In this document: in pieces, positions 3,914 through 61,847 of the stretch | How positions within the stretch are numbered: position 1 is the stretch's first letter | Layout of the letters: every line of letters starts with the position of its first letter | Assembly: GCA_028706745.1 (NCBI GenBank) | Contig: JAQTVM010000004.1 | Coordinates: 5,137-69,136 of the forward strand | DNA: 64,000 nt | From: Candidatus Nanoarchaeia archaeon | Lineage (GTDB): Archaea > Nanobdellota > Nanobdellia > SCGC-AAA011-G17 > GW2011-AR17 | Direction: 5' to 3' | Notes under the pieces: generated by a model | The model's database searches: none | Seen by the model: the letters and a program-made list of their open reading frames with translations, nothing else | Told to the model about the DNA's origin: nothing | Translations under genes and position numbers: made by a program

Positions 3914-3915
3914 CT

Positions 3916-43256: not shown

Positions 43257-44012
43257 ATGGCTTTATACATAATAGGGCTCGGACTGGGCTCTGAAAAGGA
43301 CATTACTGAAAAAGGACTGGAAGCAGTAAGAAACTGCAACTTCGTCTACATAGACACATACACTTCAATACTTCCCGCCGAACTAAAGAAATTAGAGGAC
43401 TTTTACGGCAAGAAGATTATACCTGCATCAAGAGAATTGGTTGAGAAGCAGGCAGAGGAGGAGATGCTGAAGAAAGCAGTAGAGAATGACGTTGCTTTTT
43501 TGGTTGTAGGAGATGTTTTCTCGGCAACAACTCACGTTGATTTGGCTTTAAGGGCGAGAAAAGCAGGACTCAAGGTTCATCTGATTCACAATGCATCTAT
43601 TTTGACAGCAGTAGGAGATACCGGATTGTCTTTGTACAAGTTCGGAAAGACAACTTCAATACCTTTTGAAAACAAGGATGTTGAAGCGCCGTATGATGTA
43701 TTGAAAGAAAATGCAGGAATGCACACCTTATTCTTATTGGACTTGAAAGTGGAAGAAAACAAGACAATGTCTGCGAAGGAAGCAGTTGATTTTCTTTTGA
43801 AGGTTGAAGACAAGAGAAAGGAAAAGGTATTCACTGAGGAAACAATGTGCGTTGCGTGCGCAAGATTGGGATTTGAAGACGAGGAAATTGTTTATGCGGC
43901 TGCAAAGCAGATATTGAAGGAAAAGATAAGCAAGTTCCCGCAGTGCCTGATAGTTCCCGGCAAGCTCCACTTCATGGAAGAGGAGTATCTGAAGGGCTTT
44001 GAGGTTAAATAG
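43257..44012 (+). CDS. dph5: diphthine synthase
   Basis: MALYIIGLGLGSEKDITEKGLEAVRNCNFVYIDTYTS..., LVVGDVFSATTH. Tetrapyrrole-methylase fold typical of Dph5/DphB. Confidence 0.9.
   Translation: MALYIIGLGLGSEKDITEKGLEAVRNCNFVYIDTYTSILPAELKKLEDFYGKKIIPASRELVEKQAEEEMLKKAVENDVAFLVVGDVFSATTHVDLALRARKAGLKVHLIHNASILTAVGDTGLSLYKFGKTTSIPFENKDVEAPYDVLKENAGMHTLFLLDLKVEENKTMSAKEAVDFLLKVEDKRKEKVFTEETMCVACARLGFEDEEIVYAAAKQILKEKISKFPQCLIVPGKLHFMEEEYLKGFEVK
43932..44008 (+). repeat. 77-bp direct repeat, left copy (authentic in-frame 3' end of dph5)
   Basis: 76/77 identical to 46874-46950. Confidence 0.9.
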
Positions 44013-44022
44013 CTAAGATGCA

Positions 44023-44628
44023 TTATAATACCTGCATTATTTTTTCTACCAAATCTTTTTGGATTTTTGGAATATCTCTATTAGTAATTATTAGTTCCAT
44101 TTCACAATTTTGTTTTAATAGTTCATAATAATTATCTCGTATTTTCTCAACATTTCTAATGTTTGTTGAGAATAATGATCCTATTCCTGTAATTGCATTT
44201 CTGCTTTGGCTTCTGCTAAAAGATTCTATGGTATTGCAATCTAATAAAAAGGTTAAATTAGGTGTTGGCGCCCCATATTTCTTGTTTATATTTAATATCT
44301 CTTGAGACCTTAATCCGCAGCTTGTTTGGTATGCGGCACTCGTATAATAATATCTATCAAATATCAATAAATCATAATTAGACTTACGAAAATTATCCTT
44401 AAATGTTTGTGCTCTCGCTTTTGCGAACCCCTCTATATCTTCGATTGAAAAAGGCAATTTAGGTCCTTTTGTTTGATACCATGCTTCTACCTCTCTTTTG
44501 AAGGGCTCATAATGTTTTTCTACTATTCCTAATGTCCTAATCTTAGTATTCTTGAAATATTCTATGAGTAACCGGAATTGTGTTGTTTTTCCGACTCCGC
44601 TGCATCCTTCCAAGCATATTAGATCCAT
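44023..44628 (-). CDS. thymidylate/dNMP kinase-like P-loop kinase
   Basis: MDLICLEGCSGVGKTTQ (P-loop as in Tmk) and IFDRYYYTSAAYQ (Tmk DRY..S..AYQ block). I chose the start at 44628; the longer track ORF would overlap the divergent gene. Confidence 0.65.
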   Translation of the reverse strand: MDLICLEGCSGVGKTTQFRLLIEYFKNTKIRTLGIVEKHYEPFKREVEAWYQTKGPKLPFSIEDIEGFAKARAQTFKDNFRKSNYDLLIFDRYYYTSAAYQTSCGLRSQEILNINKKYGAPTPNLTFLLDCNTIESFSRSQSRNAITGIGSLFSTNIRNVEKIRDNYYELLKQNCEMELIITNRDIPKIQKDLVEKIMQVL

Positions 44629-44692
44629 ATTATAATCACGGAGTAGTGAATAATGGTAAAGTTTATAAACCTTTCTTATATCTCTCAAAGGC

Positions 44693-46132
44693 ATGGCAAT
44701 TGAAGACATAATAACAGATTATACAAGGGCTAAAGACCTTATAAGGGCAAATACCTTGTTTAAGGCTTCAAATAGTGAATATGATGGTATTCAGATGGTC
44801 TTGAATTATACCCATGTAATGGAAAGTGTAGTAAAAGACTTGTTTAATATGTCCGCAAATGGAATAAAAGGGATAGGGGTATTTCTTTATGGTTCATTAG
44901 GAAGAAAAGAGATGGTTAGTGAATCTGATGTAGATATGCTTATTTTACACGAAGAAAAAGGTGAGGGTACATATAAGGAAATTAAAACACGTTTTAAGCA
45001 ATATGTTAAACCCTTTCAGTTTTGTAAAATTGATCTTCCGGAATGGGGCAACTTGGCTGAAGCGGAAATATTCGCACGAAAAAGTATAACCGAGGGGAAT
45101 CAGGTATTGGAAGCTAGATTCTTAAGCGGAGATAGAACTATAGCTAATAAAGTTGAGGATATACAAAAAATGTATGCAAGCCCAGAGAGGATGGTTAGAA
45201 ATATAGTTTTCCAAAAATTTTACTTTGAGCAGTATTTCAAACAAAGAGTAAGGGAAGGGAATGTAAATGTCAAATATTGTCATGGTGGGAGCAGGGATCT
45301 TATGTTCATAAGTTGGTTTGATACGCTTATGTCAAGAAAGTACGATAATTGGAAACAAACAAAATCAGAATCGCCAGCAGCACTTGTAGGTTTGCTTAAT
45401 CTTTATAATAATGGATTAATAGATGCACTAACGTTAAGCAGGGATATAGAAGCCCTAAACTTTAATCTTATATTAAGAAATGAAATACTGCAAGCTAATA
45501 AGGGGACTTTTGATGAAGGATTGACTTTTATGGACGATATTACAGCAATGAAAGTATTTAGCAGAATATCTGATTTTATGGGCTATATGAAGATACGAAA
45601 TCATCAGGAACTTAGAGAAGAATTTAATAGGCAAAGAAAACATATTAATGATGTTAAATCTCTTATCTGGAATCAGATGATAACAGAAAAATCCAAAGTT
45701 TTTGGGGCTAAATGGGGTTGCGATTTCAAAAGGGCATATGCTGAATCTACTCCTGAAAAAGAAAGAGCAAAAATTGCTAAAACAGATGACTTATTAATTA
45801 GAATTGCAGCAATTTGGGGAGCAACTAATTCAGGGCAGCAAAGATTACTTAGAAAACTTATGGAAAAGGAAAGAGATACTGATTCTTGGGAGATACAGGC
45901 CTCCTTTGCAACAAGCCCTTTTTGTACACCTGACTATTTGCATCATTTAGGTACTGGTCTGGCAAAAGAAATAGGCTATGGTTATATATTGAGGATAATT
46001 TGCAGAAATCCGAATGTATCTATGGAAACATTAAAGAATATAGCTAATGATACTTCTTTGGAGAGCAGATACAAACAATTAGCAGAAACTGCCTTAGAAC
46101 ATGGAAAGGATGCTGCTAATCATCAGGTATGA
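44693..46132 (+). CDS. GlnD-like nucleotidyltransferase (stand-alone, no HD/ACT domains)
   Basis: FLYGSLGRKEMVSESDVDMLIL matches the GlnD/GlnE-type GxxGRxE...SDxD motif. NVKYCHGGSRDL matches the GlnD N(I/L)K..PGG.RD block. A ~250-aa C-terminal region is uncharacterised. Confidence 0.6.
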   Translation: MAIEDIITDYTRAKDLIRANTLFKASNSEYDGIQMVLNYTHVMESVVKDLFNMSANGIKGIGVFLYGSLGRKEMVSESDVDMLILHEEKGEGTYKEIKTRFKQYVKPFQFCKIDLPEWGNLAEAEIFARKSITEGNQVLEARFLSGDRTIANKVEDIQKMYASPERMVRNIVFQKFYFEQYFKQRVREGNVNVKYCHGGSRDLMFISWFDTLMSRKYDNWKQTKSESPAALVGLLNLYNNGLIDALTLSRDIEALNFNLILRNEILQANKGTFDEGLTFMDDITAMKVFSRISDFMGYMKIRNHQELREEFNRQRKHINDVKSLIWNQMITEKSKVFGAKWGCDFKRAYAESTPEKERAKIAKTDDLLIRIAAIWGATNSGQQRLLRKLMEKERDTDSWEIQASFATSPFCTPDYLHHLGTGLAKEIGYGYILRIICRNPNVSMETLKNIANDTSLESRYKQLAETALEHGKDAANHQV

Positions 46133-51004: not shown

Positions 51005-51071
51005 TGCTAAATTAAGAGTTTAGAAAGGTTTATATAGTTATTCATTATTATTGAATAATTATTCACTTAAA

Positions 51072-51656
51072 ATGAAAGATAATAACGAATCAAGAATACT
51101 CAGGTTTTTGCTTAGAAACAATGCAAGACCCGGGTTTAACATAAACAGCATTGCAAGAAATATCGGGATAAGCGTTGGCAGCGCATTCAAGATACTTAAG
51201 GAGCTGGAAAAAAGCGGCATGGCTTCTGTTGAAAGGCTTGGCAATGCCTGCTTTTACTCGCTTAATCTTGCAAATGAAGAGGCTGCCAAGAGATGCGAGC
51301 TTCTGCTTCTTGAGGAAAAAAGGGATTTAACAGGGCATGCGAAGATTTATGCAGAAGACATACAGAAGTTTGAAAATGCGGAATTGATTGTAATGTTCGG
51401 CTCTGTTTTAAGAAAAAAGGATTTTAATGATGTTGATATTTTGTTTGTTACAGATAAGGCAAGGGAGGCAAGCTCATTCTGCCTTGAAATATCAAAGGTG
51501 CGGGCAAAGCCCGTTGTCCCGATGTTATTGAAAAAAACAGACGCAGTCAGGGAATTGAGGGAAAGGAAAGAGGTTATGCAAACAATTATAAGGGAAGGCA
51601 TTGTTTTAAGGGGCGAACAAGTGTTCATAGAGATTATAAAAAATGGCAGGGTGTAA
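51072..51656 (+). CDS. wHTH-fused minimal nucleotidyltransferase (MNT-type)
   Basis: VMFGSVLRKKDFNDVDILFV. The N-terminal ILRFLLRNNARPGFNINSIARNIGISVGSAFKILKELEKSG is a wHTH. The first ATG is at 51072; the track ORF starts at a TTG at 51051. Confidence 0.75.
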   Translation: MKDNNESRILRFLLRNNARPGFNINSIARNIGISVGSAFKILKELEKSGMASVERLGNACFYSLNLANEEAAKRCELLLLEEKRDLTGHAKIYAEDIQKFENAELIVMFGSVLRKKDFNDVDILFVTDKAREASSFCLEISKVRAKPVVPMLLKKTDAVRELRERKEVMQTIIREGIVLRGEQVFIEIIKNGRV

Positions 51657-52113
51657 GACAAAGCTGGATTGGTGCCTTTCAAAAGAAACAAGGCTAAAGC
51701 GGATTGCTCCTAATCCTGTCCGTTCAAGGGAGCATATTGAAAAGGCAAAGCATAATCTTCTGGCTGCTGATTACAATGCCCAAGGCGGCTTCAGCGACTG
51801 GGCTGTTTCACAGGCATATTATGCAATGTATCATGCGCTTTTGGCGGTATTGTTCAAGCACGGATATGAGTCGCAAAACCATGAATGCACGATTACTGCT
51901 GTTGAACACCTTATCAGGATTAAAAAGGTGAAGCTGGAATTAGGGGATATTGCATTCATAAGGACAGCGGAGCAGATGAAGCCGCAGGATGCAAAATCAT
52001 TAAGGGAAGAGTTTCAGTACGGGGCAAAAACAGATGTGAATAAGGAAATTCTTGATTTTCTTGTTAAAAAGGCAAAAGAAATAGTCGAGAAGGTTGAGCT
52101 GGCGTTGCAGTGA
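51643..52113 (+). CDS. HEPN domain protein
   Basis: 14-nt overlap with the MNT gene. Segments: EHIEKAKHNLLAADYN, AVSQAYYAMYHALLAVLFKHGYESQNHECT. Confidence 0.6.
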   Translation: MAGCKTKLDWCLSKETRLKRIAPNPVRSREHIEKAKHNLLAADYNAQGGFSDWAVSQAYYAMYHALLAVLFKHGYESQNHECTITAVEHLIRIKKVKLELGDIAFIRTAEQMKPQDAKSLREEFQYGAKTDVNKEILDFLVKKAKEIVEKVELALQ

Positions 52114-52434: not shown

Positions 52435-52704
52435 GCGGTGGATATGCCGGGGTGTTGGTTCTACCCTGTCACTTCAAACGAACCTCATGGAAGGGCTATC
52501 GTCCGGGAGCGGGCCGTGCTTTGGCATTGGTCACTTGCCTACTGTTGACACCTTGTCCTGCAGGGTCGTTGCTTTTGGGAATCAGGTCAGGCCAGGAATG
52601 GAGCAGCCTTAACCAACTGCAGTGTCGCTTGCGGGTTCGCAGGGCCGAGGGAAGCTTGGGATTCACCAGTGGCGAGGCATGTAACAATTTCGGGCTTCCG
52701 CCGC
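52435..52704 (+). ncRNA. signal recognition particle RNA (archaeal 7S type)
   Basis: AUCAGGUCAGGCCAGGAAUGGAGCAGCC matches the universal helix-8 motif (CAGGUCAGGUCCGGAAGGAAGCAGCC in 4.5S RNA). The 5' GCGGUGGA pairs with the 3' UUCCGCCGC as a terminal stem. GC-rich and followed by a T-rich tract. Confidence 0.8.
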
Positions 52705-52815
52705 AATTTATTTTCTTTATGTTATTGCTGTCTTATTTCACCCTTAGCTCTTTCATCATTTTATCCCATTTCCACCAAAAGCCTTATATATTACATGCGT
52801 AATACAATATATTAC

Positions 52816-53082
52816 ATGGACACAATCTCTTTCAAGCTCCAAGAGGATATCGTCAAGACAATGGACAAGCTCATCAAGCCCCTGCATTTCAACAACAGGA
52901 CAGAGTTCATAAGGGAGGCAATAAGAGAAATGATATGGAAAGTCGAGGCGGAAATCACGATAAAGAAGCTGGAGAAGTTCAAGGGCGCCGCGAAGGTGCA
53001 TATAACTGACGAGCAGTTTGAAAAAGGAAGGGAAGAAGTAGGAAAGCGGTATGCTGAAAAATGGGGCATAAAGCTAGATTAG
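52816..53082 (+). CDS. ribbon-helix-helix (CopG-like) protein
   Basis: MDTISFKLQEDIVKTMDKLIKPLHFNNRTEFIREAIREMI. Convergent with the PIN gene, with a 9-nt overlap. Confidence 0.7.
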   Translation: MDTISFKLQEDIVKTMDKLIKPLHFNNRTEFIREAIREMIWKVEAEITIKKLEKFKGAAKVHITDEQFEKGREEVGKRYAEKWGIKLD

Positions 53083-53493
53083 CTCTTCCGGCTTTTTGAA
53101 TTCAGTTATTTCTGCAAGCAATTCAAAGTGATGGTCTCTTGCAACCATAATTGCTAAATTATCTCTTGCAAGTATGGCGTAAATGCAGTCGCTAAACGGT
53201 ATTTTAAGTCTATTGCACAAGATGCCTGCTTCCCGCCTTTGTTCCTGGCTTATATCAACTTCTTCCAAAAGCCCCTTATCAGCAACAATACTAAACATTT
53301 TGTTTATTTTTTCCATGCTAAAATAATGTAGCAGTTCTTCAACCACTAAATCTGAATACAGCACTATATCCTTTTCCCTGATTATCTTCTTTAATAGCTC
53401 AAATGCCCATTCACCAAGAGGGCGAAATCTATCCACTCTGTTTTCATGAAAATCCCACCATATTGAAGTGTCCAAATAATACCTCTTTTGCAT
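53074..53493 (-). CDS. PIN-domain protein (VapC-like)
   Basis: MQKRYYLDTSIWWDFHENRVDRFRPLGEW, SDCIYAILARDNLAIMVARDHHF. Confidence 0.75.
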   Translation of the reverse strand: MQKRYYLDTSIWWDFHENRVDRFRPLGEWAFELLKKIIREKDIVLYSDLVVEELLHYFSMEKINKMFSIVADKGLLEEVDISQEQRREAGILCNRLKIPFSDCIYAILARDNLAIMVARDHHFELLAEITEFKKPEELI

Positions 53494-53643: not shown

Positions 53644-54375
53644 ATGAAACCATGGCTGCACAAGATTGAGCATTTCGTTGACAGGGCAATACCCTACGCC
53701 TTAATCGTGCTTGCGGGCATTATAATCACTGAACTGTTTTTCAAGCAGTTTGCAGAGGAATACCATCTTGTTATTTCAGTTCTTGACTATTTGATAATCT
53801 CGTTCTTTGTTGCGGACCTGATATTCAAGTACAACAGGATAAGGAAGTTCAAGGAATTCATAAGAGAATGCTGGCTTGACATAATAGCTGTTTTTCCGTT
53901 TGTCCTGTTTTTCAGGTTTTTTGAGGGATTTGCTGCATTTTTCAGGTACAGTTCGGAATTAAAGGAAGGGCAGTCAATCCTGCACACAATTGTCGAGGGC
54001 AGAAAGGAGATAGCAGAGCTGTTCGGCAGGGGCTCAAAGCTTGTTGAAGAGGCAAAGCTTGCTGGCGAGCTGAGCAGGTCGGAAAAAATTCTTAAGGCAG
54101 TAAGGCCCTTGGCAAGGTCTCCAAGGCTGATAAAGGCAATACCTTTTTATGAAAAGCCCACAGGAAGGCACCATCTTCACGAAATGGAGGAGCTGGATGT
54201 GGCTGAAAAAGAAATAAAAAAACAGGAAAAAAACATTGAAAAAGGCGCCAGGAAATTAAAAAATAAGCTGAACAATTTTTGCGGCAAAAACCGGAGCCAG
54301 CCTGACGAGGCGCTCCAAAAACCGCTTTCAAGGAAGTTGAAAAAAAGCGGCAAAAAAAGCAAAAAGAAGCGTTAA
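53644..54375 (+). CDS. membrane protein resembling an isolated ion-transport/voltage-sensor-like module with Lys-rich tail
   Basis: Three or four TM helices. The WLDIIAVFPFVLFFRFF segment resembles ion_trans family helices. No pore/selectivity motif seen. The C-terminal half is charged. Confidence 0.45.
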   Translation: MKPWLHKIEHFVDRAIPYALIVLAGIIITELFFKQFAEEYHLVISVLDYLIISFFVADLIFKYNRIRKFKEFIRECWLDIIAVFPFVLFFRFFEGFAAFFRYSSELKEGQSILHTIVEGRKEIAELFGRGSKLVEEAKLAGELSRSEKILKAVRPLARSPRLIKAIPFYEKPTGRHHLHEMEELDVAEKEIKKQEKNIEKGARKLKNKLNNFCGKNRSQPDEALQKPLSRKLKKSGKKSKKKR

Positions 54376-54505
54376 TTTCCGCTCATTCTGCGTGATTTTC
54401 CAAGGTATGCCGTAAAATTTGCGGATTTTTTCCAGCAAAGTTTATTAAGAAGTTCTGTGCAAAAACCAATCAGCTTCACGGAAGCAAAAAATAAAGGAGG
54501 AAAAA

Positions 54506-54928
54506 ATGGAAGACACAAAGCTTGTTGGAATCCTGAACACGGAGGTGTACAGGCAGAAGGCGCTGAATGCAAAAGACGACGAAAAAGCGCTTTATGAGTC
54601 AAAGGCAGTATATGCAGAGCTGGAAGAAAGGATGAGGAAAGGCACTCTGAAAGACGTGATTGAGGCAATCATCAAGAATTCAGATGAGCCTGTTGCTGTT
54701 GAGGCAAGGGACTACCTTAGATTGCACAACGGCTCAAACACGATATGCGAGGTAAGGGCGTATAATACGGATAACAGCAGGAAAAAGAAAGAAGACACTG
54801 AAATACTTCCCCTTGATGAAAAAGCAGCCGCATACATTGACATGAGAAAGACAGCTGACGAGACAGAATATGACTGCCTTGACCTGACTGTAAAGCTATA
54901 CGATGATGTCGGAAATGGAACTGCCTGA
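54506..54928 (+). CDS. small protein, candidate ubiquitin-like modifier precursor (first gene of the E1/E2/JAB operon)
   Basis: A strong AAGGAGG SD. 140 aa. The C-terminus is ...CLDLTVKLYDDVGNGTA. Overlaps the JAB gene by 26 nt. The functional call is inferred from context only. Confidence 0.4.
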   Translation: MEDTKLVGILNTEVYRQKALNAKDDEKALYESKAVYAELEERMRKGTLKDVIEAIIKNSDEPVAVEARDYLRLHNGSNTICEVRAYNTDNSRKKKEDTEILPLDEKAAAYIDMRKTADETEYDCLDLTVKLYDDVGNGTA

Positions 54929-56276
54929 ATTCCTTTACAGCAGGATTTGCAGCACTGCAAGGGCTGTTTCAGATATTGCAGAGAGGGAAATCGAGTGCAT
55001 GGGCTATTTGCTTCAGAAGAAAGGCAGCCTGTTAATCACTGATTTCTTTTTTCCAAAGCAGAACGGCATGGACGCAAGAAGCGGCACTTCTGATTTCCCT
55101 CCCAGGGACATGTATGAGAAAGGATTTTACATTGCAGGAATGTGGCACAGCCACGGCGCCTTTCCCTTGTTTCATTCTGAAATTGACTATGCCCATATCG
55201 CAAACAAGCTGAAGGCAATGGAGAGGGAATACAAAACATTGGGCTCATGGCTCTCATTTTCATCCGGAAATGAAATTGCAATGTACAACAAGGAGACAAT
55301 GCAGGGATTCAAGATAATGCTGAAGGATAATCTGGGAGCGCAGGCAGACAAAACAGTTCCTGAAATAAATGTAAAAGAGGTTTTTCCGGATGAATTTCTC
55401 AGCATTGTGGTAAATGAAGGTGTTTACAGGAATGGAAAAAAGCCCCACGCAATGAAGTTTTCCCTTGACGGCTCAAATCTCCTGAAATCCAAGGAAGAGA
55501 CAGGGATTATTCCTTCGTTGCCGGACGAGACGCTTGAGGAAATAGCTGAAAAATTTTACTTCAACGGAAAGCCCCTGAAGGAGTCAGGGAATTATAAGCA
55601 AATTAATGCGCCAAAAGCAAAGGCAGAGGGAAAACAAGTGCATTTGAACTGCAAAAAAGGGAATTTCCTTTTTGAATGCAAAAATAAGGAAGAAGCAAAT
55701 GAATTGCAAGAGTCAATATTGTCTGTTGAAGAGCTTGGAGAGCAGGAGAAAAAAGAAATAAGCGCCAGAATCCCAAAGCCGCTTTCTTTGGAACAAAATC
55801 TTGGCTTAATTCTGAAAAAGAAAACAACAGCAATAGCGCCTGAAAAGCAATACGCTTCAAATGACGACTACCTTAACGGCTCAAAAGAGTTTCATTTGTT
55901 TTACGTTGGAAAGTTTCTCGCTTTGCTGCCTTATTATACAAGGGCAGAGCTTGAATCAGAAAAGGCAGTGCTTGACCTGCTTGCGGCAGTAGCGGGAGTG
56001 TTTGACGATGCGGAAACAAGGGAAGAGGCAATCAAGGCAAGAGCGGTAAAAATCAAGCAAGCCTGCAGAAAAATAAAAGCTGCAGACAAGTCAGCAAAAG
56101 AGGCGCTGAAAAAAGCAGGAGAAATAATAAGGGGAGGGGATTACAGCAAGGATGAAAAAAGAAAAATTCTTGCAAGGCTGAGGATGATTAGAAAGAAGAA
56201 TGCCGGGGAAAAAGAGATGAAAAATGGTTTGCGAGCAGGGCGAAGTGAACCCTTGAACGGAGTGGGGACGAAGTGA
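54903..56276 (+). CDS. JAB/MPN+ (JAMM) metallopeptidase with long C-terminal extension
   Basis: E in REIECMGYL. GMWHSHGAFPLFHSEID gives H-x-H-x7-S-x2-D. A ~300-aa Lys/Glu-rich tail follows. Confidence 0.7.
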   Translation: MMSEMELPEFLYSRICSTARAVSDIAEREIECMGYLLQKKGSLLITDFFFPKQNGMDARSGTSDFPPRDMYEKGFYIAGMWHSHGAFPLFHSEIDYAHIANKLKAMEREYKTLGSWLSFSSGNEIAMYNKETMQGFKIMLKDNLGAQADKTVPEINVKEVFPDEFLSIVVNEGVYRNGKKPHAMKFSLDGSNLLKSKEETGIIPSLPDETLEEIAEKFYFNGKPLKESGNYKQINAPKAKAEGKQVHLNCKKGNFLFECKNKEEANELQESILSVEELGEQEKKEISARIPKPLSLEQNLGLILKKKTTAIAPEKQYASNDDYLNGSKEFHLFYVGKFLALLPYYTRAELESEKAVLDLLAAVAGVFDDAETREEAIKARAVKIKQACRKIKAADKSAKEALKKAGEIIRGGDYSKDEKRKILARLRMIRKKNAGEKEMKNGLRAGRSEPLNGVGTK

Positions 56277-57292
56277 AAATGCCTGATACATTCTTCAAGT
56301 CATTTATTGCAAAAAAGCCGTGCGCTGTTGTATTCCCTTATGTCCATATGCAGGCAGACGCAAGAGAAAGCTATGTTGATTTCAATAAAAGCAGGTTCTG
56401 GCTTTCAATGACAGGCACTATAAACGGGCTTGAGAATGCGCTGCTTGAAAAAAACAGCGAATCATCATTCGCAGACAGGGTAAAGCAGGATGTGATTGAA
56501 AAAGGCGCCTTAAGCCTTGAGCAGTCTTTGAATGGCATGCCCAAGGAATATGTCCGGCTTGCAGAATTTGTAATGCACGGAGATTTGCCGCAAAAAAAAG
56601 GGATTATTGCAGAGCGGGTGCTTCCTTCCAAAAACTTTTTTGCTGTTTCAGGAAAAATCTACCCGCTTTTTGAGGGAGGGCAGAATGCGGCAATAGCGAA
56701 TAAAAGATACAGCCTCGGGCTTACACCCTCCTCCTCGATTGATGAGCTTGACTCAAAATATATGAAAGCCTTAGAATATGAAAAAAGAAAGCGGGGATTG
56801 TGCGCAAAGCTGGATGCAATGCAGGGATTAAAAGAAAAGAGGTGGCTTGACAGCGGCAAAAACATCGGTTTCAGAATAATAAAAGAAAGGTTCTATGCAT
56901 TCACAAAAGTGGATTCATATGTTCTTTTTGAAAGGATGAACAATGCATATTATGAATTCCCTGAGGCAGAAGTGGGTGTTCCCTTGTTCCTTAATGAAAA
57001 GGGAATTGACTTTGGAAAGCTTTACGTGCTGAACACATACAGCCATCCTTCAATATCCTGCTTTGAAATCCCTATGCAGCCGATATGCGCAGGCAGCTAT
57101 GATTATGAATCTGTGAAAAGAAGGCACAAGTCGCCCTTTGCAGTGCTTGAAGAGCTTATGGAAAAGGCAAGGACTGTTCTTACGGAAGAATACAGGAGCA
57201 GGGGAAAGCCGTACTACTTTCTTACAAATGCAAAATTTGACAAATTCAAAACATCTTATTTCAATGAAAAAAAGGTGACAAACATTGGCTGA
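56273..57292 (+). CDS. protein with C-terminal E2 (UBC)-like core
   Basis: YSHPSISCFEIPMQPICAGSYDYESVKRRHKSPFAVLEELMEKA resembles UBC HPN(I)...(I)C...SP...(helix). GTG start at 56273, or ATG at 56279. Confidence 0.45.
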   Translation: MKMPDTFFKSFIAKKPCAVVFPYVHMQADARESYVDFNKSRFWLSMTGTINGLENALLEKNSESSFADRVKQDVIEKGALSLEQSLNGMPKEYVRLAEFVMHGDLPQKKGIIAERVLPSKNFFAVSGKIYPLFEGGQNAAIANKRYSLGLTPSSSIDELDSKYMKALEYEKRKRGLCAKLDAMQGLKEKRWLDSGKNIGFRIIKERFYAFTKVDSYVLFERMNNAYYEFPEAEVGVPLFLNEKGIDFGKLYVLNTYSHPSISCFEIPMQPICAGSYDYESVKRRHKSPFAVLEELMEKARTVLTEEYRSRGKPYYFLTNAKFDKFKTSYFNEKKVTNIG

Positions 57293-58568
57293 CTATTCAA
57301 GGCAGGCTGCAATCTTTGACCAGGCGGTTTTAAGGAATTCCAAGATTGCAGTAGTCGGCTCAGGGAATACAACTGATTTTTTTCTCCTTTACGCAGCAGG
57401 GCTTGGAATTGGAAATATCTTGCTTTTCAACAAGGGAGAAAGCGGTTTCTTGAAGAAAGATTATTCCTTAATCAGCAGGATAAATTCAGATGTAAATCTT
57501 GAAACAGTCAATAGCGGTTTTGAGCCTGCATTTATCGGCAAGATTGGCGCTTTGGCTGACTTTACAAATGACAAAACCTCAAAAAAAGCAGCCTTGAATT
57601 ACTGCGCAAAAAATAATGCAGGATTGTTTGTAAGCTCTTCGCCTTTGGAAACAATTTATTCCCCTTTTATTTTGTCTTCATTGCTTTGGAAGCCGTCAAT
57701 TGAAAATTCCCCTATGCCATTTTCTGCGGGATTAAAGGCGGCAATTGCCTTGGACGAAATAAGAAAAGCATTGCTTCCCCTGCCCGGAGATGAAACATTG
57801 CCGGGCAGGCTTTATTTCGGCATTTTTTCAAAAAGGCGCTTTTTTGAAAAGCAGTCGCTTGTTGAATCAATAAGCAGAAATTATCCTGCGTCAAAAGCAG
57901 GAAGGGCTTTGATAATAGGAGCAGGGGGGATAGGAACATATGTTGCATTGAACCTTGCGCTTTTGGGAATCCCGATGGAGATTTATGACGGGGACAAGAT
58001 AGAGCCGACAAATCTAAACAGGCAGGTATTTTATTATGATGCAATCGGAAAAAACAAGGCAAAAGTCCTGAAGGAAAATCTTGAAGCCCTTGTCAATGCT
58101 GATATCAAGGCAAACAGCTTTAATTTTGAAGAAAAGCACGGAAAAAAAGCAGGTTACAGCGCAGTATTTTCGTGCGTTGACAGCTGGCCTGCAAGGAAGA
58201 TTCTCAATGCATATGCCTTGAAAAATAATATTCCCTTGATAGACGCAGGAGTAGGGCCTTTCACAGCAAGACTTGACGTCTGCAACAAGAATGCCTGCCT
58301 TGAATGCAGAAGGGGAAAAAGGGAGGAAAAGCCATCCGCAGGCGGCTGCGCTTCGCTTCAGGAGTCAAATGTCGTGATGTGCAATGCATTCATCGGTGCA
58401 ATGGCTGCTGCTGAATTCTATGCAATGCAGATGTCAAGGGAAAACAAGGGCAGGCAGCTTTTGTATTTCTCAAAAAAATCATTAAAAGAAAAGGTTTGCC
58501 TGCTTGAAACTGAAACGCAGTGCAGTGAAAGCTGCGAATGCCCATGCCATGGAGTAAAAAATGCGTGA
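57285..58568 (+). CDS. E1-like (ThiF/MoeB/UBA family) enzyme with degenerate N-terminal and active C-terminal adenylation domains
   Basis: The C-terminal domain has IIGAGGIGTYVALNLALLGI, DGDKIEPTNLNRQ, CVDSWPARKILN and CLEC. The N-terminal domain has VVGSGNTTDFFLLYAAGLGIGNILLF without the NLNRQ block. TTG start. Confidence 0.75.
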   Translation: MADYSRQAAIFDQAVLRNSKIAVVGSGNTTDFFLLYAAGLGIGNILLFNKGESGFLKKDYSLISRINSDVNLETVNSGFEPAFIGKIGALADFTNDKTSKKAALNYCAKNNAGLFVSSSPLETIYSPFILSSLLWKPSIENSPMPFSAGLKAAIALDEIRKALLPLPGDETLPGRLYFGIFSKRRFFEKQSLVESISRNYPASKAGRALIIGAGGIGTYVALNLALLGIPMEIYDGDKIEPTNLNRQVFYYDAIGKNKAKVLKENLEALVNADIKANSFNFEEKHGKKAGYSAVFSCVDSWPARKILNAYALKNNIPLIDAGVGPFTARLDVCNKNACLECRRGKREEKPSAGGCASLQESNVVMCNAFIGAMAAAEFYAMQMSRENKGRQLLYFSKKSLKEKVCLLETETQCSESCECPCHGVKNA

Positions 58569-58971
58569 ACGAGAAATAATGAACCTGCTCAGGCAGGATG
58601 CAAGGCTTACAATAAGGCAGGCTGCCTCATCTTTAGGGGAGTCAAGGCATTCCGCTGCAAGGGCTTTCAGGAGGGCTTTGAGAAAGGCAGGCAGGTTCAC
58701 GATAATACTTGATTTCAGGCAGATGGGATTTGAGATACACGCGCTTTTTCTTCTTGAGCCAAGGACAATAAGGCTTGTAAAATTCCTGAAACAAAATGCC
58801 AGCGTAAACTCTGTCTTTGGATGCAGGGGGAATTATTCGCTTATGGTATATGCAATATTCCGCAATATGCGGCGGTTTGCTGACTTTGACGACAGGGTGT
58901 CAAGGCTGTGCACGGGAAAAAGAATTCATTTTATTGTTGAGGAGGTGAAGCAGGAAGATGCCTTTCTATGA
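58561..58971 (+). CDS. Lrp/AsnC-like transcriptional regulator
   Basis: REIMNLLRQDARLTIRQAASSLGESRHSAARAFRRALRKAG (HTH_AsnC pattern) followed by a RAM-like domain. 8-nt overlap with the E1 gene. Confidence 0.55.
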   Translation: MREREIMNLLRQDARLTIRQAASSLGESRHSAARAFRRALRKAGRFTIILDFRQMGFEIHALFLLEPRTIRLVKFLKQNASVNSVFGCRGNYSLMVYAIFRNMRRFADFDDRVSRLCTGKRIHFIVEEVKQEDAFL

Positions 58972-59632
58972 AAAGCTTAGGAGAATAAAATATCCGCTGG
59001 CTGCGGTTTTGGCGGCGGGTTTAATAGGCACAGGAGTATTTGCAGGAGCCAGCTGCAATACTAAAAGCCAAGATAACCCTCCGCAAACAGGAAGCATTGA
59101 GCCATACAGGCAGGCGCTTGAGAAACTTGCAGAATGCGAAACATACCTCCTTGATGAGAAGTATGAAAAAGCAAGCGAGTGCAATGATTCTTTTGCGTTA
59201 ATTGAGCAGGAAAGCAGTGAATACAGGCAAAGCATAAGCAGCCTTTCTGAGCGCTTTTCAAACAGGCTGCAGGATTCCATTGAAAGCAAATATAACCTTA
59301 TGCTTAAGCAGGCAGAAGCAGAGCTTTCTCTTGATAATTACAGCTATGCCTTGGAGCTTTCAAACAGGGCTGAGAATGAGCTTGAAAAATTGGATTTCTT
59401 TGAAAAGCAGAATGAGATGCTTGCAAAATCCAACGAGCTTGAAAGGAAAATAAATGATGAAAAATCAAATAATACTGCTGACTTTTCTTACATTGAGCAT
59501 TATTACGGCAGGATAAAGCAGCTTTACCTTTTATTGGGCTTTGGACAGCCGTTGTCAGACATTGCAGCCGCTTTGACAATATTGCTGCCTGTATACGGCG
59601 TTGTGAGAAGGATGAGAAAAAGGTTTGTCTGA
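58958..59632 (+). CDS. lipoprotein with C-terminal TM helix and basic tail
   Basis: Lipobox FAGASC, a coiled central part, and the C-terminus GQPLSDIAAALTILLPVYGVVRRMRKRFV. Confidence 0.55.
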   Translation: MPFYEKLRRIKYPLAAVLAAGLIGTGVFAGASCNTKSQDNPPQTGSIEPYRQALEKLAECETYLLDEKYEKASECNDSFALIEQESSEYRQSISSLSERFSNRLQDSIESKYNLMLKQAEAELSLDNYSYALELSNRAENELEKLDFFEKQNEMLAKSNELERKINDEKSNNTADFSYIEHYYGRIKQLYLLLGFGQPLSDIAAALTILLPVYGVVRRMRKRFV

Positions 59633-60283
59633 TTATTCAGCCCCAAGCTTTACAGGCTCTTCCTCTTGTGCTTCTGTTGTTTCAGGAGCGATTTCCTGTT
59701 CTGCAGGAGGTGTTTCTTCAACCTTTCCGGCATTTTCAATATTGCCTGTTGCTGGAGTGTATGTTATTTCTCCGGTAATGCCTGTCTCAATGAATACCCT
59801 GAAATTTGGTGAAAAGGTATAGTCGTGATATTCTGTGGAAATCATAATCTCCTTTTCAGTAAGCCCGAAAAGCCCCCTGCTGTCTATCCTGAATATGTAG
59901 TCTTCTGCCTTCAGTTCAGCACCCGGATAAGCCTTGTTGAATTCAGCAAGATATTTGCCGAATTCCCCTGAAAAGTCCCTGATGAACTGCTCAGGATTTG
60001 CCTTTAATGTCTCAATTGGCTTTTTTATATGCAATTCTTCCTCTCTTATCTCAATAAATTTTCCCGCTTTCCTGAATGAGTTGTAAGCAGCAGTATCAAT
60101 GAACAACAGCTGTTTTTCTCCTTCAAGGTATGTATTATAAATATTAATTTCTGTTTCTCCAAGGTAGCTTGTAACCGGGCCTTCCTTGAGCGAGTCAGTC
60201 CTGTTGTAAAATATTATCATTGCAATCAGGAAAGCGATTGCTGAAAACGTGAGCACAGCCATTGCCTTTTTTCTTATGGGCAT
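59633..60283 (-). CDS. membrane-anchored hypothetical protein with acidic C-terminus
   Basis: A GGAGGTG SD precedes the ATG at 60283 (MPIRKKAMAVLTFSAIAFLIAMIIFY). The Glu/Pro-rich tail is PPAEQEIAPETTEAQEEEP. Confidence 0.55.
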   Translation of the reverse strand: MPIRKKAMAVLTFSAIAFLIAMIIFYNRTDSLKEGPVTSYLGETEINIYNTYLEGEKQLLFIDTAAYNSFRKAGKFIEIREEELHIKKPIETLKANPEQFIRDFSGEFGKYLAEFNKAYPGAELKAEDYIFRIDSRGLFGLTEKEIMISTEYHDYTFSPNFRVFIETGITGEITYTPATGNIENAGKVEETPPAEQEIAPETTEAQEEEPVKLGAE

Positions 60284-60921
60284 AATCCCACCTCCAAAGT
60301 AACTGTCTTTCCGCTGTCCGTGGGCAGCTTTATGTCGCTGATTTCGCATCCCCTGAATCCGCCTTCAACAAAAAGTTCGGGATTTCTTTGGCGCTTTTCA
60401 ATGATTTTTGCATGCTCATAACGCGGCGTGCATATGAAAACTTCTTTTCCTGTGTCATCATACATTGCAATCTGCCATACAAAAGGCAGCCTGCTTTCAA
60501 GAAAATCATAAAAATTCTTAGTGCATTTTGTGCTGTCGCTTGTCTTTGCAAAGCCTGCATCTGTTCCAAAAGGCGGCTGTGAAAACACCCAGGGATAAAG
60601 CTCCTTGTTTCCGTCAGCTATTATGCCCAGCATTTCCCCGACATTAACAGGTATGCTTTTTTCAAACCATGCGCTGTCTCGCAAGTAACTGTCAAGTATC
60701 GGCGTTCTCACAAGAGTCATTGCATCAAGCATGTAAAGCCCTGCCATGTCGTTCATCTGCTTTGGCTCAATCTCCTTCTTTTGATTAAATTCAGACAATG
60801 CAATTATTCCCATTGTTATTGCTATTATTATAATCGAGATTATCAGGTCTGCGAACAGGTCCTCTGTCTGCCCTTTCTTGCCATTTATCTTATAAATTGA
60901 TTGTTTTTTCAAGATTTTCAC
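60274..60921 (-). CDS. prepilin-like (class III signal peptide-like) protein
   Basis: N-terminus ...INGKKGQTEDLFADLIISIIIIAITMGIIAL: basic residues, then G, then a polar residue, then a hydrophobic helix. Confidence 0.4.
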   Translation of the reverse strand: MKILKKQSIYKINGKKGQTEDLFADLIISIIIIAITMGIIALSEFNQKKEIEPKQMNDMAGLYMLDAMTLVRTPILDSYLRDSAWFEKSIPVNVGEMLGIIADGNKELYPWVFSQPPFGTDAGFAKTSDSTKCTKNFYDFLESRLPFVWQIAMYDDTGKEVFICTPRYEHAKIIEKRQRNPELFVEGGFRGCEISDIKLPTDSGKTVTLEVGLCP

Positions 60922-61453
60922 CTGTTTCTTCGCTCATTCTCTCCAGTGTTTCCCTGTTGTCTGACGGCTTGCTTTGGCGGTTTCCTAAGTAATAATCATT
61001 CATTTCTGCCTCAAATTTCACATAAACAAGCTTGTCGCTGGTTGCTTTTTTTAAAAGAACTCCCCTTTCTGCTTTGTCAGTGTTTTCACCAAGCATCCCT
61101 CCAGCTATAACCTTATCTGAGCCTGTCATTGAAATTGCATAAGGAATATCTCCCAGATATCTTCTGCATAATTTATTTTTTTCTCCATTATATTTTGATT
61201 CGTCTATTATTCCCGGATAAGTCCTTCCTGTTGTTTCGTCATAATAGGCAAGGCAGTAAGGGGAGTATATTGTTTCCTGAAGAAGAATCTGCCCCATGAC
61301 TGCGTCCTTGTTTTTTGATGAGATTGTATAATGCTTGCTTATCGTGCCTGCAGTGTATATGAAAATAAAGGCAAGTACAAAGAGCACGATTATGAAATAA
61401 AGGGTTTTTCTTGATATGTCATAACTTCCTCGTTTCCCTATTCTTTTAATCAT
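60890..61453 (-). CDS. N-terminally anchored hypothetical protein (possible prepilin-like)
   Basis: MIKRIGKRGSYDISRKTLYFIIVLFVLAFIFIY. Confidence 0.4.
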   Translation of the reverse strand: MIKRIGKRGSYDISRKTLYFIIVLFVLAFIFIYTAGTISKHYTISSKNKDAVMGQILLQETIYSPYCLAYYDETTGRTYPGIIDESKYNGEKNKLCRRYLGDIPYAISMTGSDKVIAGGMLGENTDKAERGVLLKKATSDKLVYVKFEAEMNDYYLGNRQSKPSDNRETLERMSEETGENLEKTINL

Positions 61454-61847
61454 GCAGCACCCTTTTTATGTCATATAATCCTGCTTCAGGGTTTGCCCTG
61501 AAAACAATATTGTCTTTTTGAAAACCGCCCCATATCGGGCTGTCATCGCTGCTTAGCACTTTTATCCTTTTGCATTCTTCTGTGTCAGCTGAGCAAATGC
61601 CTGAAACCTTGTAATTTGGGCTTAATGGATACTTTGCAATGATATCTCCGGGGGATGACATAAGCGCGCTTACCATCATTGACAAGTCATTTTCAACATA
61701 AAGCTTTCCAAGCCCTGACAATCCGGAGTATGAGAATACTGCAAGAATAAGCAGTACTGCAACAGCAATTCCTATTATTATGTCAAAAAGCGTAAGGGTT
61801 TCCATCTCTTCCGCTTCCCCTTTTTTGTTTAGATGCAATCGTTTCAT
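61446..61847 (-). CDS. prepilin-like protein
   Basis: MKRLHLNKKGEAEEMETLTLFDIIIGIAVAVLLILAVF has the same KKG-(E/Q)-x-E...hydrophobic layout as the gene at 60274. Confidence 0.4.
   Translation of the reverse strand: MKRLHLNKKGEAEEMETLTLFDIIIGIAVAVLLILAVFSYSGLSGLGKLYVENDLSMMVSALMSSPGDIIAKYPLSPNYKVSGICSADTEECKRIKVLSSDDSPIWGGFQKDNIVFRANPEAGLYDIKRVLHD

Follow-up and report, generated by a model that had tools for sequence, protein, structure and literature searches.

A candidate ubiquitin-like protein-tagging operon in a DPANN archaeon

Organization of the Gene Cluster

We analyzed a 64,000-nucleotide stretch of DNA (hereafter, the window) from a Candidatus Nanoarchaeia archaeon (GCA_028706745.1, contig JAQTVM010000004.1, positions 5,137 to 69,136 of the forward strand). 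Six plus-strand ORFs were located at 54506–54928 (ORF1, 140 aa), 54903–56276 (ORF2, 457 aa), 56273–57292 (ORF3, 339 aa), 57285–58568 (ORF4, 427 aa), 58561–58971 (ORF5, 136 aa), and 58958–59632 (ORF6, 224 aa), overlapping by 26, 4, 8, 8, and 14 nt. The ORFs were called from the first possible start codon. Related sequences suggest that ORF2 starts at Met5 (54915) and ORF3 at Met3 (56279), which would shorten the first overlap to 14 nt and remove the second. A Shine-Dalgarno-like GGAGG lies at 54496–54500 (+), 5 nt before the ORF1 ATG. A TATA-like box, TTTATTAA, lies at 54441–54448 (+), about 58 nt upstream of the same ATG, and is inferred from the sequence alone to be a candidate archaeal promoter of the operon.

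The original prediction described these ORFs as a ubiquitin-like conjugation operon, and its observation was correct: all six ORFs, their overlaps, and every motif it named are present. This is far more than chance, as each ORF has homologues (E down to 1e-223) and the cluster is conserved in every related locus.

ORF2 Encodes a JAB/MPN+ Peptidase

ORF2 consists of a JAB/MPN+ metallopeptidase (about residues 1–175) followed by a ~280-aa Lys/Glu-rich helical tail. Residues 27–103 matched Pfam PF14464 (Prok-JAB) with 26.6 bits, above the cut-off of 25. The JAMM motif is contained in REIECMGYL and HSHGAFPLFHSEID. E31, H82, H84, S92, and D95 are invariant in the close family, and E31, H82, H84, and D95 are invariant in distant loci. 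The tail matched nothing in Pfam or the PDB.

ORF4 Encodes a Tandem-Domain E1

ORF4 comprises an inactive plus an active ThiF-type adenylation domain in a single chain. The inactive adenylation domain (IAD; residues 1–195, 57285–57869, +) contains VVGSGNTTDF. A profile built from 11 N-terminal halves hit ThiF (2e-12) and MoeB (9e-12) in the PDB, with alignment gaps falling exactly where the D-x-D...NL-x-RQ ATP-binding block lies. All 11 members hit PF00899. The GxGxxG motif is degenerate, with only G25 retained.

The active adenylation domain (AAD; residues 196–427, 57870–58568, +) contains IIGAGGIGTYVALNLALLGI, DGDKIEPTNLNRQ, and CLEC, and matched Pfam ThiF (residues 205–414, 3.8e-37, 128 bits). 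The best PDB matches were SUMO E1 UBA2 (1e-12), MccB, and ThiF. G212/G214/G217, D235, D237, N243, R246, Q247, K258, D299, C338, C341, and C413 are invariant even in distant loci. The domain carries a Zn-type C338-x-x-C341 motif, C-terminal C413/C419/C421/H422, and the crossover-loop Cys355 (58347–58349), the predicted thioester site. C355 is invariant in the close family and kept in 6 of 7 of the wider set. There is no inserted CYS domain and no UFD or other recognizable E2-docking domain.

ORF1 Is a Candidate Pro-Modifier

ORF1 ends in VKLYDDVGNGTA. In an alignment of 14 family sequences, an invariant TVKLYDDVG136 is followed by a tail of 2–33 aa that varies in length and sequence. Distant homologues end in ...KVG/V, ...CG/K, ...VG/R, and ...EGG/RKYRTLDTLFK (the slash stands after the Gly), so that across close and distant homologues the tail spans 1–33 aa. 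One distant homologue (from a locus designated L015), however, ends in ...TVM without a terminal Gly. The mature form is predicted to end at Gly136 (codon 54911–54913), with the tail NGTA (54914–54925) predicted to be removed. ORF1 is the most conserved protein of the cluster (61–86% identity, against 37–81% for the enzymes).

The original prediction suggested a β-grasp fold for ORF1, but no such fold could be shown. ORF1 had no Pfam or PDB match, its AF2 model was only moderately confident (pLDDT 69) and gave no Foldseek hit (best E of 0.5), and hhalign against Ub, NEDD8, SUMO, ThiS, and MoaD found nothing.

ORF3 Is a Candidate E2-Type Cys Carrier

ORF3 has a variable N-terminal half and a conserved C-terminal core (residues ~185–339), and contains YSHPSISCFEIPMQPICAGSYD...LEELMEKA. 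It is the founding member of an unannotated family: an exhaustive profile search found 177 clusters at 50% identity with E ≤ 1e-3. The family shares a near-invariant Y-x-H-P...Q-x-I-C-x-G signature. Across 68 members at 18–44% identity, G199, P259, C272, and Y307 are invariant, while Y256 and H258 are ≥90% conserved. Of the two Cys residues in the motif, only C272 is conserved; C264 is not. The codons for H258-P259...Q269-x-I271-C272 (57044–57088, +) are predicted to encode an active-site loop with the acceptor Cys272. In the AF2 model, this loop lies between a β-meander (190–247) and helices (278–304), in a region of pLDDT 84–93. The order of elements in this confident part (helix, β-meander, HP/Cys loop, and helices) follows the UBC order.

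Nevertheless, the UBC fold that the original prediction proposed for ORF3 was not supported by any search. ORF3 had no match in Pfam, and profiles against the PDB found nothing. UQ_con and Prok-E2_A-E were absent even at E ≤ 10 in the 68 members, and the best PDB E value from Foldseek was 0.2, with spurious β-sandwich-like hits. hhalign placed the motif on the YHPN...G-x-IC of canonical E2s, but without significance (Prob <1%, E 0.09).

ORF5 and ORF6

ORF5 is a divergent Lrp/AsnC-like winged-helix protein and a candidate regulator. It was originally described as fused, but it is a separate gene that overlaps the E1 gene by 8 nt. All hits for the window protein were below the Pfam cut-offs (HTH_24, 0.0036; HTH_AsnC-type, 0.0052; AsnC_trans_reg, 0.023), while NCBIfam Lrp-type models gave 7e-6 to 2e-3. 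Across the family, 8/10 members hit HTH_24 (best 9.5e-8), 5/10 the AsnC-type HTH, and 3/10 the ligand domain. ORF5 is also present after the E1 in a more distant locus, L016.

ORF6 was originally described as a lipoprotein, but it is a membrane protein and not a demonstrable lipoprotein, since its ‘lipobox’ Cys is not conserved. An alignment and a hydropathy scan revealed a TM helix at each end (residues 12–33 and 198–216), basic flanks, and a helical middle region with invariant C60 and C75. It is conserved after ORF5 in the close family and in L016, and no family match was found.

Conservation of the Gene Linkage

The small protein, Cys-protein, E1, and JAB are adjacent in all 12+ distinct loci, and ORF3 is always next to an E1 and a JAB. 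These loci include four distant ones from Nanoarchaeota/Woesearchaeota at about 20–25% identity, with the gene orders Ubl-E2-E1-JAB and Ubl-E2-JAB-E1. The module appears in three gene orders and next to different housekeeping genes, such as Topo VI-B/eIF-1A, DNA ligase, and LSm/L37e, which argues for one pathway. No MoaE/ThiG-type sulfur-transfer genes are nearby in these loci. The operon and both its flanks are syntenic in all close relatives, down to about 40% protein identity.

Proposed Conjugation Pathway

The original interpretation was partly supported. The JAB peptidase and the tandem E1 are confirmed, whereas the modifier and the carrier are supported by conservation and context, but not by fold or profile evidence. 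Of the conditions set beforehand as arguing against a conjugation operon, none was fulfilled in full: the ORF3 Cys is conserved, no sulfur-carrier genes are linked, and the gene linkage is conserved.

We propose, with moderate confidence, that the cluster is an operon for a ubiquitin-type protein-conjugation cascade specific to DPANN archaea (Nanoarchaeota/Woesearchaeota). In this view, the six genes are transcribed together and translationally coupled, as read from the sequence. ORF1 would be made as a precursor, and the JAB peptidase would remove the short variable tail to expose Gly136; this is inferred from the conserved Gly followed by a variable tail and from the invariant JAMM site. The N-terminal domain of the single-chain pseudo-dimeric E1 has lost the ATP site and would serve as a scaffold, while the C-terminal domain would bind ATP, adenylate Gly136, and pass it to Cys355. 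Here, the domain layout and catalytic residues are shown by the analysis, but the chemistry is inferred. The transfer of the modifier to Cys272 of ORF3 is inferred from conservation and strict gene linkage. It is likewise inferred that ORF3 delivers the modifier to target proteins through its variable N-terminal half without a separate E3, as proposed for the Bil and CBASS E2s, and that the JAB also reverses the modification. ORF5 probably controls the operon, and ORF6 is a candidate membrane partner, sensor, or target. As the locus is syntenic and vertically inherited next to housekeeping genes, we favor a cellular regulatory or protein-homeostasis role over a mobile defense role, although the biological role is the weakest part of this explanation.

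Comparison with Described Systems

We found no description of this system in the literature accessible to us, and it is probably undescribed; the activating enzyme and the trimming protease are recognizable, but the putative tag and carrier belong to families that no database yet describes. In Bil (bacterial ISG15-like, BilA-D) systems, there is no E3 gene and the E2 is thought to pick targets itself (10.1101/2024.11.21.623953). However, the Bil E1 carries a separate mobile catalytic-Cys domain (IAD-AAD-CYS), whereas here the Cys sits in a short crossover loop and the whole E1 is only ~425 aa. The Bil Ubl is a recognizable (tandem) β-grasp protein and BilB a recognizable E2, while neither counterpart is recognizable here by sequence or by the fold searches run. 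Furthermore, the host here is an archaeon and the locus is syntenic rather than island-like.

Type II CBASS combines E1 and E2 chemistry (Cap2) with a JAB (Cap3) acting on the C-terminus of a protein that is not a classical β-grasp Ubl, the CD-NTase, providing a precedent for a modifier without a ubiquitin fold. The E1 hit PADLOC Cap2 ‘E1-E2’ models at 1e-9 to 1e-12 and PDB Cap2 at 1e-7. Cap2, however, is an E2-E1 fusion, and the system needs a CD-NTase and an effector; none is present here, and ORF1 has no nucleotidyltransferase features.

Bub (6E/DUF6527) operons are a diverged prokaryotic Ubl/E1/E2/peptidase family whose components were long thought inactive, and the Citrobacter BubCD E1 was a weak PDB match (4e-6). 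Bub works through Tyr/Ser oxyesters, lacks catalytic Cys in both E1 and E2, and encodes a DUF6527 serine protease. Here, both Cys are conserved and no DUF6527 protein is present.

Archaeal sampylation (SAMP/UbaA/HvJAMM1) also employs a ThiF-type E1 and a JAMM protease, and the NCBIfam SAMP-activating E1 model hit the active domain (1.8e-15), but with 57 bits against a cut-off of 450. Sampylation has no E2 and a single-domain homodimeric E1, its genes are usually dispersed, and it doubles as a sulfur carrier, whereas here the E1 is a tandem IAD-AAD and a Cys-protein is strictly linked. The eukaryote-like ubiquitin operons of Caldiarchaeum and Asgard archaea likewise encode a modifier, E1, E2-type protein, and JAB (Rpn11-like) peptidase (PMC3082918, PMC5654768). 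Those use bona fide ubiquitin, a Pfam-recognizable UBC E2, and a RING E3, while here we found no UQ_con hit in the 68 family members, no RING protein, and no ubiquitin similarity.

Alternative Explanations

The same chemistry might serve antiviral or anti-MGE defense, as in Bil or type II CBASS, with the modifier conjugated to virus proteins or to an effector on infection. We regard this as possible but less likely. All characterized prokaryotic E1/E2/JAB/Ubl operons outside sulfur metabolism are antiphage systems (10.1101/2024.11.21.623953). Accessory genes vary between distant loci (Ser/Thr kinase, transglutaminase-core protein), and the family is patchy and rare. The toxin-antitoxin neighborhood, from which a conflict or defense role was originally suggested, is real: two TA-like pairs (Pol-β NTase+HEPN and RHH+PIN) lie just upstream. 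However, these pairs are part of the syntenic block conserved in relatives, which is not the behavior of a variable island, and they are therefore weak evidence for defense. Distant copies sit among housekeeping genes. The PADLOC E1 hits are weaker than the generic ThiF/MoeB hits, ORF1–3 had no meaningful PADLOC hit, no relatives were found on IMG/VR viral contigs, and no effector gene is recognizable.

It appears doubtful, though conceivable, that ORF3 is not a carrier, and that the E1 conjugates ORF1 directly, E2-independently as in archaeal SAMP/UbaA (PMC4895103). ORF3 would then be a target, an adaptor, or a different Cys/His enzyme, such as a peptidase or transglutaminase-like ligase. The absence of any E2 fold or profile match, the lack of a UFD-like domain in the E1, and the β-sandwich-type Foldseek noise drawn by the β-rich C-terminal domain are consistent with this. 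On the other hand, the HP and Cys were counted as the only invariant polar residues across the 68 divergent members (H258 at ≥90%), are spaced like the HPN...Cys of E2s, and lie in the loop between the predicted β-meander and helices. ORF3 is strictly co-inherited with the E1, JAB, and small protein through gene-order shuffling, and a mere target would not be expected to keep a single invariant Cys.

A sulfur-carrier pathway of the MoaD/ThiS/SAMP2-Urm1 type, in which the E1 adenylates and thiocarboxylates ORF1 for cofactor or tRNA thiolation, is improbable. The active domain of the E1 is closest in sequence to ThiF/MoeB/UbaA models and carries the CxxC Zn motif typical of MoeB/ThiF. However, every NCBIfam ThiF/MoeB/UbaA score is far below its cut-off (for example, 79.6 against 275), and there is no rhodanese domain and no MoaE/ThiG/ThiH/NcsA-type gene in any of the loci. 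ORF1 has no similarity to ThiS/MoaD, and the IAD-AAD tandem, the JAB, a precursor tail, and a conserved Cys-protein are features of conjugation systems.

Finally, a RiPP-like pathway, in which an MccB/PaaA-type enzyme modifies the C-terminus of ORF1 to make a secreted or bioactive product, with the JAB as the maturation protease and ORF6 as a membrane exporter or immunity protein, is a remote possibility, because although MccB and PaaA are among the best PDB matches of the E1 (2e-12 and 2e-9) and a membrane protein is co-encoded, no transporter is present, the N-terminal domain of the E1 is a ThiF-like IAD and not an RRE peptide clamp, ORF1 is 140 aa, conserved over its whole length, and structured, and its variable part is the piece after the conserved Gly, the opposite of a leader/core peptide.

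Organization of the Six-Gene Operon

We located six overlapping ORFs on the plus strand, at 54506-54928 (ORF1, 140 aa), 54903-56276 (ORF2, 457 aa), 56273-57292 (ORF3, 339 aa), 57285-58568 (ORF4, 427 aa), 58561-58971 (ORF5, 136 aa), and 58958-59632 (ORF6, 224 aa), with overlaps of 26, 4, 8, 8, and 14 nt. These are the six ORFs of the original prediction, and every motif reported for them was present in the translations; the observation is real. Judging from the relatives, two of the true start codons are probably a few codons downstream of the mechanical ORF start, at Met5 for ORF2 and Met3 for ORF3. Upstream of ORF1, we identified a GGAGG at 54496-54500 and a TATA-like TTTATTAA at 54441-54448. 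The window is archaeal: it carries an archaeal SRP RNA at 52435-52704, and all close homologues came from MAGs labelled Nanoarchaeota.

Sequence Features of the JAB/MPN+ Peptidase and the Tandem E1

ORF2 matched Pfam Prok-JAB (PF14464) just above its cut-off (26.6 against 25 bits). The residues of the E ... H-x-H-x7-S-x2-D zinc site, E31, H82, H84, S92, and D95, were invariant in eight close sequences, and E31, H82, H84, and D95 were also invariant in a set of seven sequences that includes distant ones. The ~280-residue tail matched nothing, and a profile of the JAB family searched against PDB sequences returned nothing relevant.

ORF4 matched ThiF (PF00899) over residues 205-414 with 128 bits, against a cut-off of 28.1, and its best solved relatives were the SUMO E1 subunit UBA2, MccB, and ThiF. 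G212/G214/G217, D235, D237, N243, R246, Q247, K258, and D299, which represent the GxGxxG motif, the D...NLxRQ ATP/Mg site, and the conserved Asp/Lys of the adenylation superfamily, were invariant. The original prediction of a degenerate adenylation copy in the N-terminal half also held. A profile of eleven N-terminal halves (residues 1-135) matched E. coli ThiF (2e-12) and MoeB (9e-12), with alignment gaps falling exactly where the D-x-D...NL-x-RQ ATP block lies, and all eleven sequences hit PF00899 on their own. A direct hhalign comparison of the N-terminal half with the C-terminal half gave a probability of only 15%, but was superseded by these clear profile matches. The E1 is thus a single-chain pseudo-dimer of an inactive and an active adenylation domain (IAD-AAD) of only ~425 residues, a layout shared with the tandem E1s of the eukaryotic Uba1 type and BilD. 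After the first Zn-type C338-x-x-C341 motif, we observed an invariant Cys355 in the crossover-loop position, which is kept in six of seven sequences of the wider set, while the seventh has a Cys a few residues on. Only about 14 residues separate CLEC341 from Cys355, and the protein ends about 70 residues later in a Cys/His cluster, leaving no room for an inserted catalytic-Cys (CYS) domain or a ubiquitin-fold domain (UFD). The NCBIfam equivalog scores were all far below their curated cut-offs (UbaA, 57 against 450; ThiF, 79.6 against 275; MoeB, 68.7 against 449).

ORF1 as a Candidate Modifier

ORF1 had no match in Pfam, NCBIfam, or PDB sequences, the last searched also with a profile of its family; weak hits to PADLOC PDC-M38B (1.7e-4) and to the HNF1-alpha homeodomain (0.03) were judged to be due to chance. 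Its family in a collection of 5.8 billion proteins is small, comprising 14-20 clusters, all from uncultivated archaea. In the alignment of 14 close sequences, the protein is conserved along its whole length up to an invariant ...TVKLYDDVG136, after which both the length (2-33 residues) and the sequence of the tail vary freely. More distant homologues, found next to distant ORF3 relatives, end in ...LNSKVG|V, ...LNTKVG|R, ...LYVDCG|K, and, in a barely alignable one, ...SHDEGG|RKYRTLDTLFK; Gly or Gly-Gly plus a tail was seen in the proteins of the distant loci L012 and L013 and in the proteins P0182, P0185, and P0186. The single exception, from the distant locus L015, ends in ...TVM, with no Gly and no tail. 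ORF1 is also the most conserved protein of the cluster in every genome pair, with 61-86% identity against 37-81% for the JAB, ORF3, and the E1. These features are the hallmarks of a processed, C-terminally activated modifier. A beta-grasp fold could not be shown. The AF2 model, which is of moderate confidence (pLDDT 69), shows one N-terminal strand, four helices, and a C-terminal region of five or six short strands. A whole-chain Foldseek search of this model against the PDB gave only noise (best E 0.5), and hhalign against ubiquitin, NEDD8, SUMO1, ThiS, and MoaD, only a weak test, detected nothing.

ORF3 as a Candidate E2-Like Cys Carrier

ORF3 had no hit in Pfam, NCBIfam, PADLOC, PHROGs, or PDB sequences. 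A word-indexed search found 15 close relatives, and an exhaustive profile search found 177 clusters at 50% identity (E<=1e-3), which share mainly the C-terminal ~150 residues and range from about 250 to 620 aa. Across 68 of these at 18-44% identity, the only invariant residues were G199, P259, C272, and Y307, with Y256 and H258 conserved at >=90%, giving the signature Y-x-H-P-[SA]-L-x(6-8)-Q-x-I-C-x-G. Of the two Cys residues in the proposed UBC-like core, the other, C264, is not conserved. H258-P259 and C272 are 14 residues apart, within the range of about 8-14 residues that separate the conserved His(-Pro-Asn) flap from the catalytic Cys in the UBC/E2 superfamily, and the Asn of HPN is replaced by Ser/Ala. 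The extreme C-terminus of the family (57275-57289) is a conserved ...V-T-N-x motif, with V335 and N337 conserved at >=90% in 23 sequences, and such a terminal peptide might dock on the E1 or the JAB.

No significant similarity to an E2 family was detected. Pfam scans of 15 and 68 members found no E2-type family (UQ_con, Prok-E2_A-E, UEV, or RWD), even at E<=10 in the 68 members, and a recurrent MpsC hit (5 of 15 members, 4e-4) was judged to be noise. Three family profiles searched against PDB sequences, which include Cap2, BilB, and BubB, found no E2. Aligning the ORF3 core by hhalign with four canonical E2s (UBE2D2, UBE2N, UBE2I, and UBE2L3), which counts only as a weak test, placed Y-x-HP...IC on YHPN...IC and aligned the following helix, but with a probability of <1%. 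In the AF2 model, built from a 15-sequence MSA, the C-terminal half is confident (pLDDT 84-93), and its predicted order of elements, helix 176-187, strands 190-247, a 30-residue loop carrying HP and Cys, and helices 278-304, is compatible with that of the UBC fold (alpha1, four-stranded meander, Cys loop, alpha2-alpha4). Foldseek with the whole chain against the PDB, however, returned no E2 and only noise (best E 0.2). Against BFVD, two unnamed viral proteins, UniProt A0A516LAI7 (522 aa) and A0A1B0WLX5 (420 aa), gave borderline matches to the model, with Foldseek probabilities of 0.97-0.99 (E about 1e-3) but poor TM-scores (0.19-0.25), which we could not interpret. Caspase- or sortase-like His...Cys enzymes were considered because of the Q-x-C-x-G resemblance, and were rejected on the 14-residue His-Cys spacing, by reasoning alone. 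We therefore treat ORF3 as an E2-like Cys carrier by motif and context, with an unproven fold.

Conservation of the Gene Linkage

In all close relatives, the six genes are kept in the same order and with similar sizes. A search for related loci with the ORF3 family alignment returned only the same lineage. This conservation alone could reflect general synteny, because the flanks are conserved too: RHH+PIN and a ~230-aa three-TM protein upstream, and four single-TM (pilin-like) genes on the other strand, followed by desulfoferrodoxin and rubrerythrin, downstream. Local variations occur among these otherwise syntenic relatives. In locus L011, a DUF1016/YhcG (PD-(D/E)XK nuclease-like) gene (7056-8096) is inserted between ORF6 and the pilin-like genes; in L004, the ORF6 homologue (10728-11942) has a ~180-aa N-terminal extension; and in L001, a reverse-transcriptase (RVT_1) gene (3148-4140) lies upstream. 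In L001, a 261-kb ENA contig, the JAB and E1 genes are additionally each split over two or three reading frames (6690-8014 and 8989-10287), while ORF1, ORF3, ORF5, and ORF6 are intact, reflecting either frameshift errors of a long-read assembly or a decaying copy of the system.

The decisive observation, and the strongest evidence we have, is that distant ORF3 relatives, at about 20-25% identity, lie in unrelated neighbourhoods and still have the same partners in other gene orders. Locus L012 encodes a small protein, an ORF3-like protein, the E1, and the JAB, next to Topo VI-B, eIF-1A, and MetRS. L013/L014 have the order small protein, ORF3-like protein, JAB, E1, followed by a Ser/Thr protein kinase (625 aa; 12783-14660 in L013), next to DNA ligase. 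L015 has the order small protein, ORF3-like protein, E1, JAB, next to LSm and L37e. A Ca. Woesearchaeota contig (JGI 3300072015) has the order small protein, ORF3-like protein, E1, JAB, followed by a transglutaminase-core protein (454 aa). L016 keeps ORF5-like wHTH and ORF6-like genes after the E1. The different extra genes that follow the distant versions suggest lineage-specific add-ons to the same core. None of the loci contained MoaE/ThiG-type genes. The persistence of the four-gene set through rearrangement is the classical signature of one pathway.

Accessory Genes

ORF5 is a separate gene, not the fused regulator originally proposed. Its own scores were below the Pfam cut-offs for both the AsnC-type wHTH and the ligand-binding domain (17.0 against 27 and 15.0 against 25), and NCBIfam Lrp-type models matched only weakly. 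Across the family, 8 of 10 members hit the winged-HTH model HTH_24, 5 of 10 the AsnC-type HTH (best 3.4e-7), and 3 of 10 the AsnC ligand domain, which suggests that ORF5 is a divergent Lrp/AsnC-like protein.

ORF6 has TM segments at residues 12-33 and 198-216 with basic flanks, and a helical middle region with invariant C60 and C75. The proposed lipoprotein identity was rejected, because the Cys after the first TM segment, taken for a lipobox, is missing in two of nine homologues, and because a second TM segment plus a basic tail is conserved. Hits of ORF6 to a PHROG Rz-like spanin and to PADLOC LmuB were judged to be coiled-coil noise.

Proposed Conjugation Pathway

The best-supported reading is a four-component conjugation cascade, in which the JAB would trim pro-ORF1 to Gly136, the AAD of the tandem E1 would adenylate it, Cys355 would take it as a thioester, and Cys272 of ORF3 would receive it. 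ORF3, whose N-terminal half varies greatly in length across the family, would then deliver it to targets without an E3, and the JAB would reverse the mark. The domain identities, the catalytic residues, their conservation, and the gene linkage are established by our analysis, whereas every chemical step, the targets, and the biological role are inferences. The core of the original interpretation, a ubiquitin-like conjugation operon, is largely right, but it is only partly supported; the folds of ORF1 and ORF3 and the biological role are the main uncertainties. We lean towards a cellular regulatory or homeostatic function because of the stable chromosomal context. Antiviral defence appears unlikely, although it is not excluded.

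In its parts list and E1 layout, the system would work most like Bil (Ubl, E2, JAB, IAD-AAD E1, and no E3), but it differs from Bil in lacking the CYS domain and a recognisable Ubl and E2. It is not type II CBASS, as there is no CD-NTase or effector domain in any of the six proteins, and the E1 and the Cys-protein are separate genes instead of a Cap2 E2-E1 fusion. It is not Bub (6E/DUF6527), which has an E1 and E2 without catalytic Cys and a DUF6527 serine protease, since both Cys355 and Cys272 are conserved here and no DUF6527/PF20137 hit was found. It is not sampylation, which has no E2 and a single-domain E1. It is not the eukaryote-like Caldiarchaeum/Asgard system, having no UBC Pfam hit, no RING, and no ubiquitin. 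Full-text literature searches found no description of an E1/E2-like/JAB system in DPANN, Nanoarchaeota, or Woesearchaeota, although earlier mention outside the incomplete collection searched cannot be excluded.

Prokaryotic E1/E2/JAB/Ubl operons (CBASS, Bil, and Bub) have recently reshaped ideas about where ubiquitin signalling came from, but all the characterised ones are bacterial and defence-linked. The present module is archaeal, chromosomally stable, and confined, as far as our searches show, to uncultivated Nanoarchaeota/Woesearchaeota. Two of its four core parts, the candidate modifier and the candidate carrier, lie outside every curated family, with about 177 sequence clusters for the Cys-protein alone, indicating that a candidate HP...Cys carrier family has been missed by Pfam and NCBIfam. 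If the chemistry is confirmed, the module would add a new branch of ubiquitin-like conjugation, with a minimal tandem E1 and a JAB with a long tail, and would provide a small four-protein system for reconstitution and structural work. It would also open the question of what protein tagging does in symbiotic archaea with tiny genomes.

A more radical possibility, which we regard as unlikely but compatible with the evidence, is that DPANN archaea possess their own protein-conjugation pathway, in which only the E1 and the JAB are inherited from the common ubiquitin toolkit. The modifier would then be a helical/beta protein that is not a beta-grasp, the carrier a structurally new Cys enzyme (an E2 analogue, or an E2 diverged beyond recognition), and the E1 the smallest known single-chain IAD-AAD pseudo-dimer, with no CYS domain and no UFD. 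This would show that E1-driven C-terminal activation has been coupled repeatedly to unrelated tags and carriers, and would give a minimal, core-genome tagging system in organisms with extremely reduced proteomes.

Genomic Surroundings

The toxin-antitoxin-like pairs upstream of the operon, from which a conflict or defence role had originally been suggested, are real: a Pol-beta NTase+HEPN pair at 51051-52113 and an RHH+PIN pair at 52669-53493. They recur at the same place in the relatives, indicating that the region is not a variable island, and no relative of ORF3 was found on IMG/VR viral contigs. An archaeal SRP RNA (Rfam RF01857, 106.7 bits) lies at 52435-52704 on the plus strand, between the HEPN gene and the RHH/PIN pair. 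The mechanical ORFs 52452-52802 and 52669-53082 overlap it, so the real RHH gene must start well downstream; the Pfam RHH_1 match begins at residue 53 of the 137-aa ORF.

Directly upstream of the putative operon promoter, at 53644-54375 on the plus strand, lies a gene for a 243-aa protein with three N-terminal TM segments (weak Ion_trans hit, 2.9e-4) and a very Lys-rich C-terminal tail. It is conserved at that position in the close family, and could be functionally connected with the operon or with ORF6. Downstream of the operon, at 59633-61847 on the minus strand, four consecutive overlapping genes (238, 215, 187, and 133 aa) each encode a single N-terminal hydrophobic segment and have no Pfam match, resembling archaeal type IV pilin-like/class III signal-peptide proteins. 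This set is conserved in all close relatives, followed by desulfoferrodoxin and rubrerythrin.

At 44001-46000, the GC content drops to 0.333, against about 0.42 elsewhere in the window, which may mark a foreign or unusual segment; the region includes a 479-aa ORF at 44693-46132. At 42915-43039 on the minus strand, Rfam calls a tRNA of 125 nt (40.6 bits) that ARAGORN did not report, which is probably an intron-containing archaeal tRNA.
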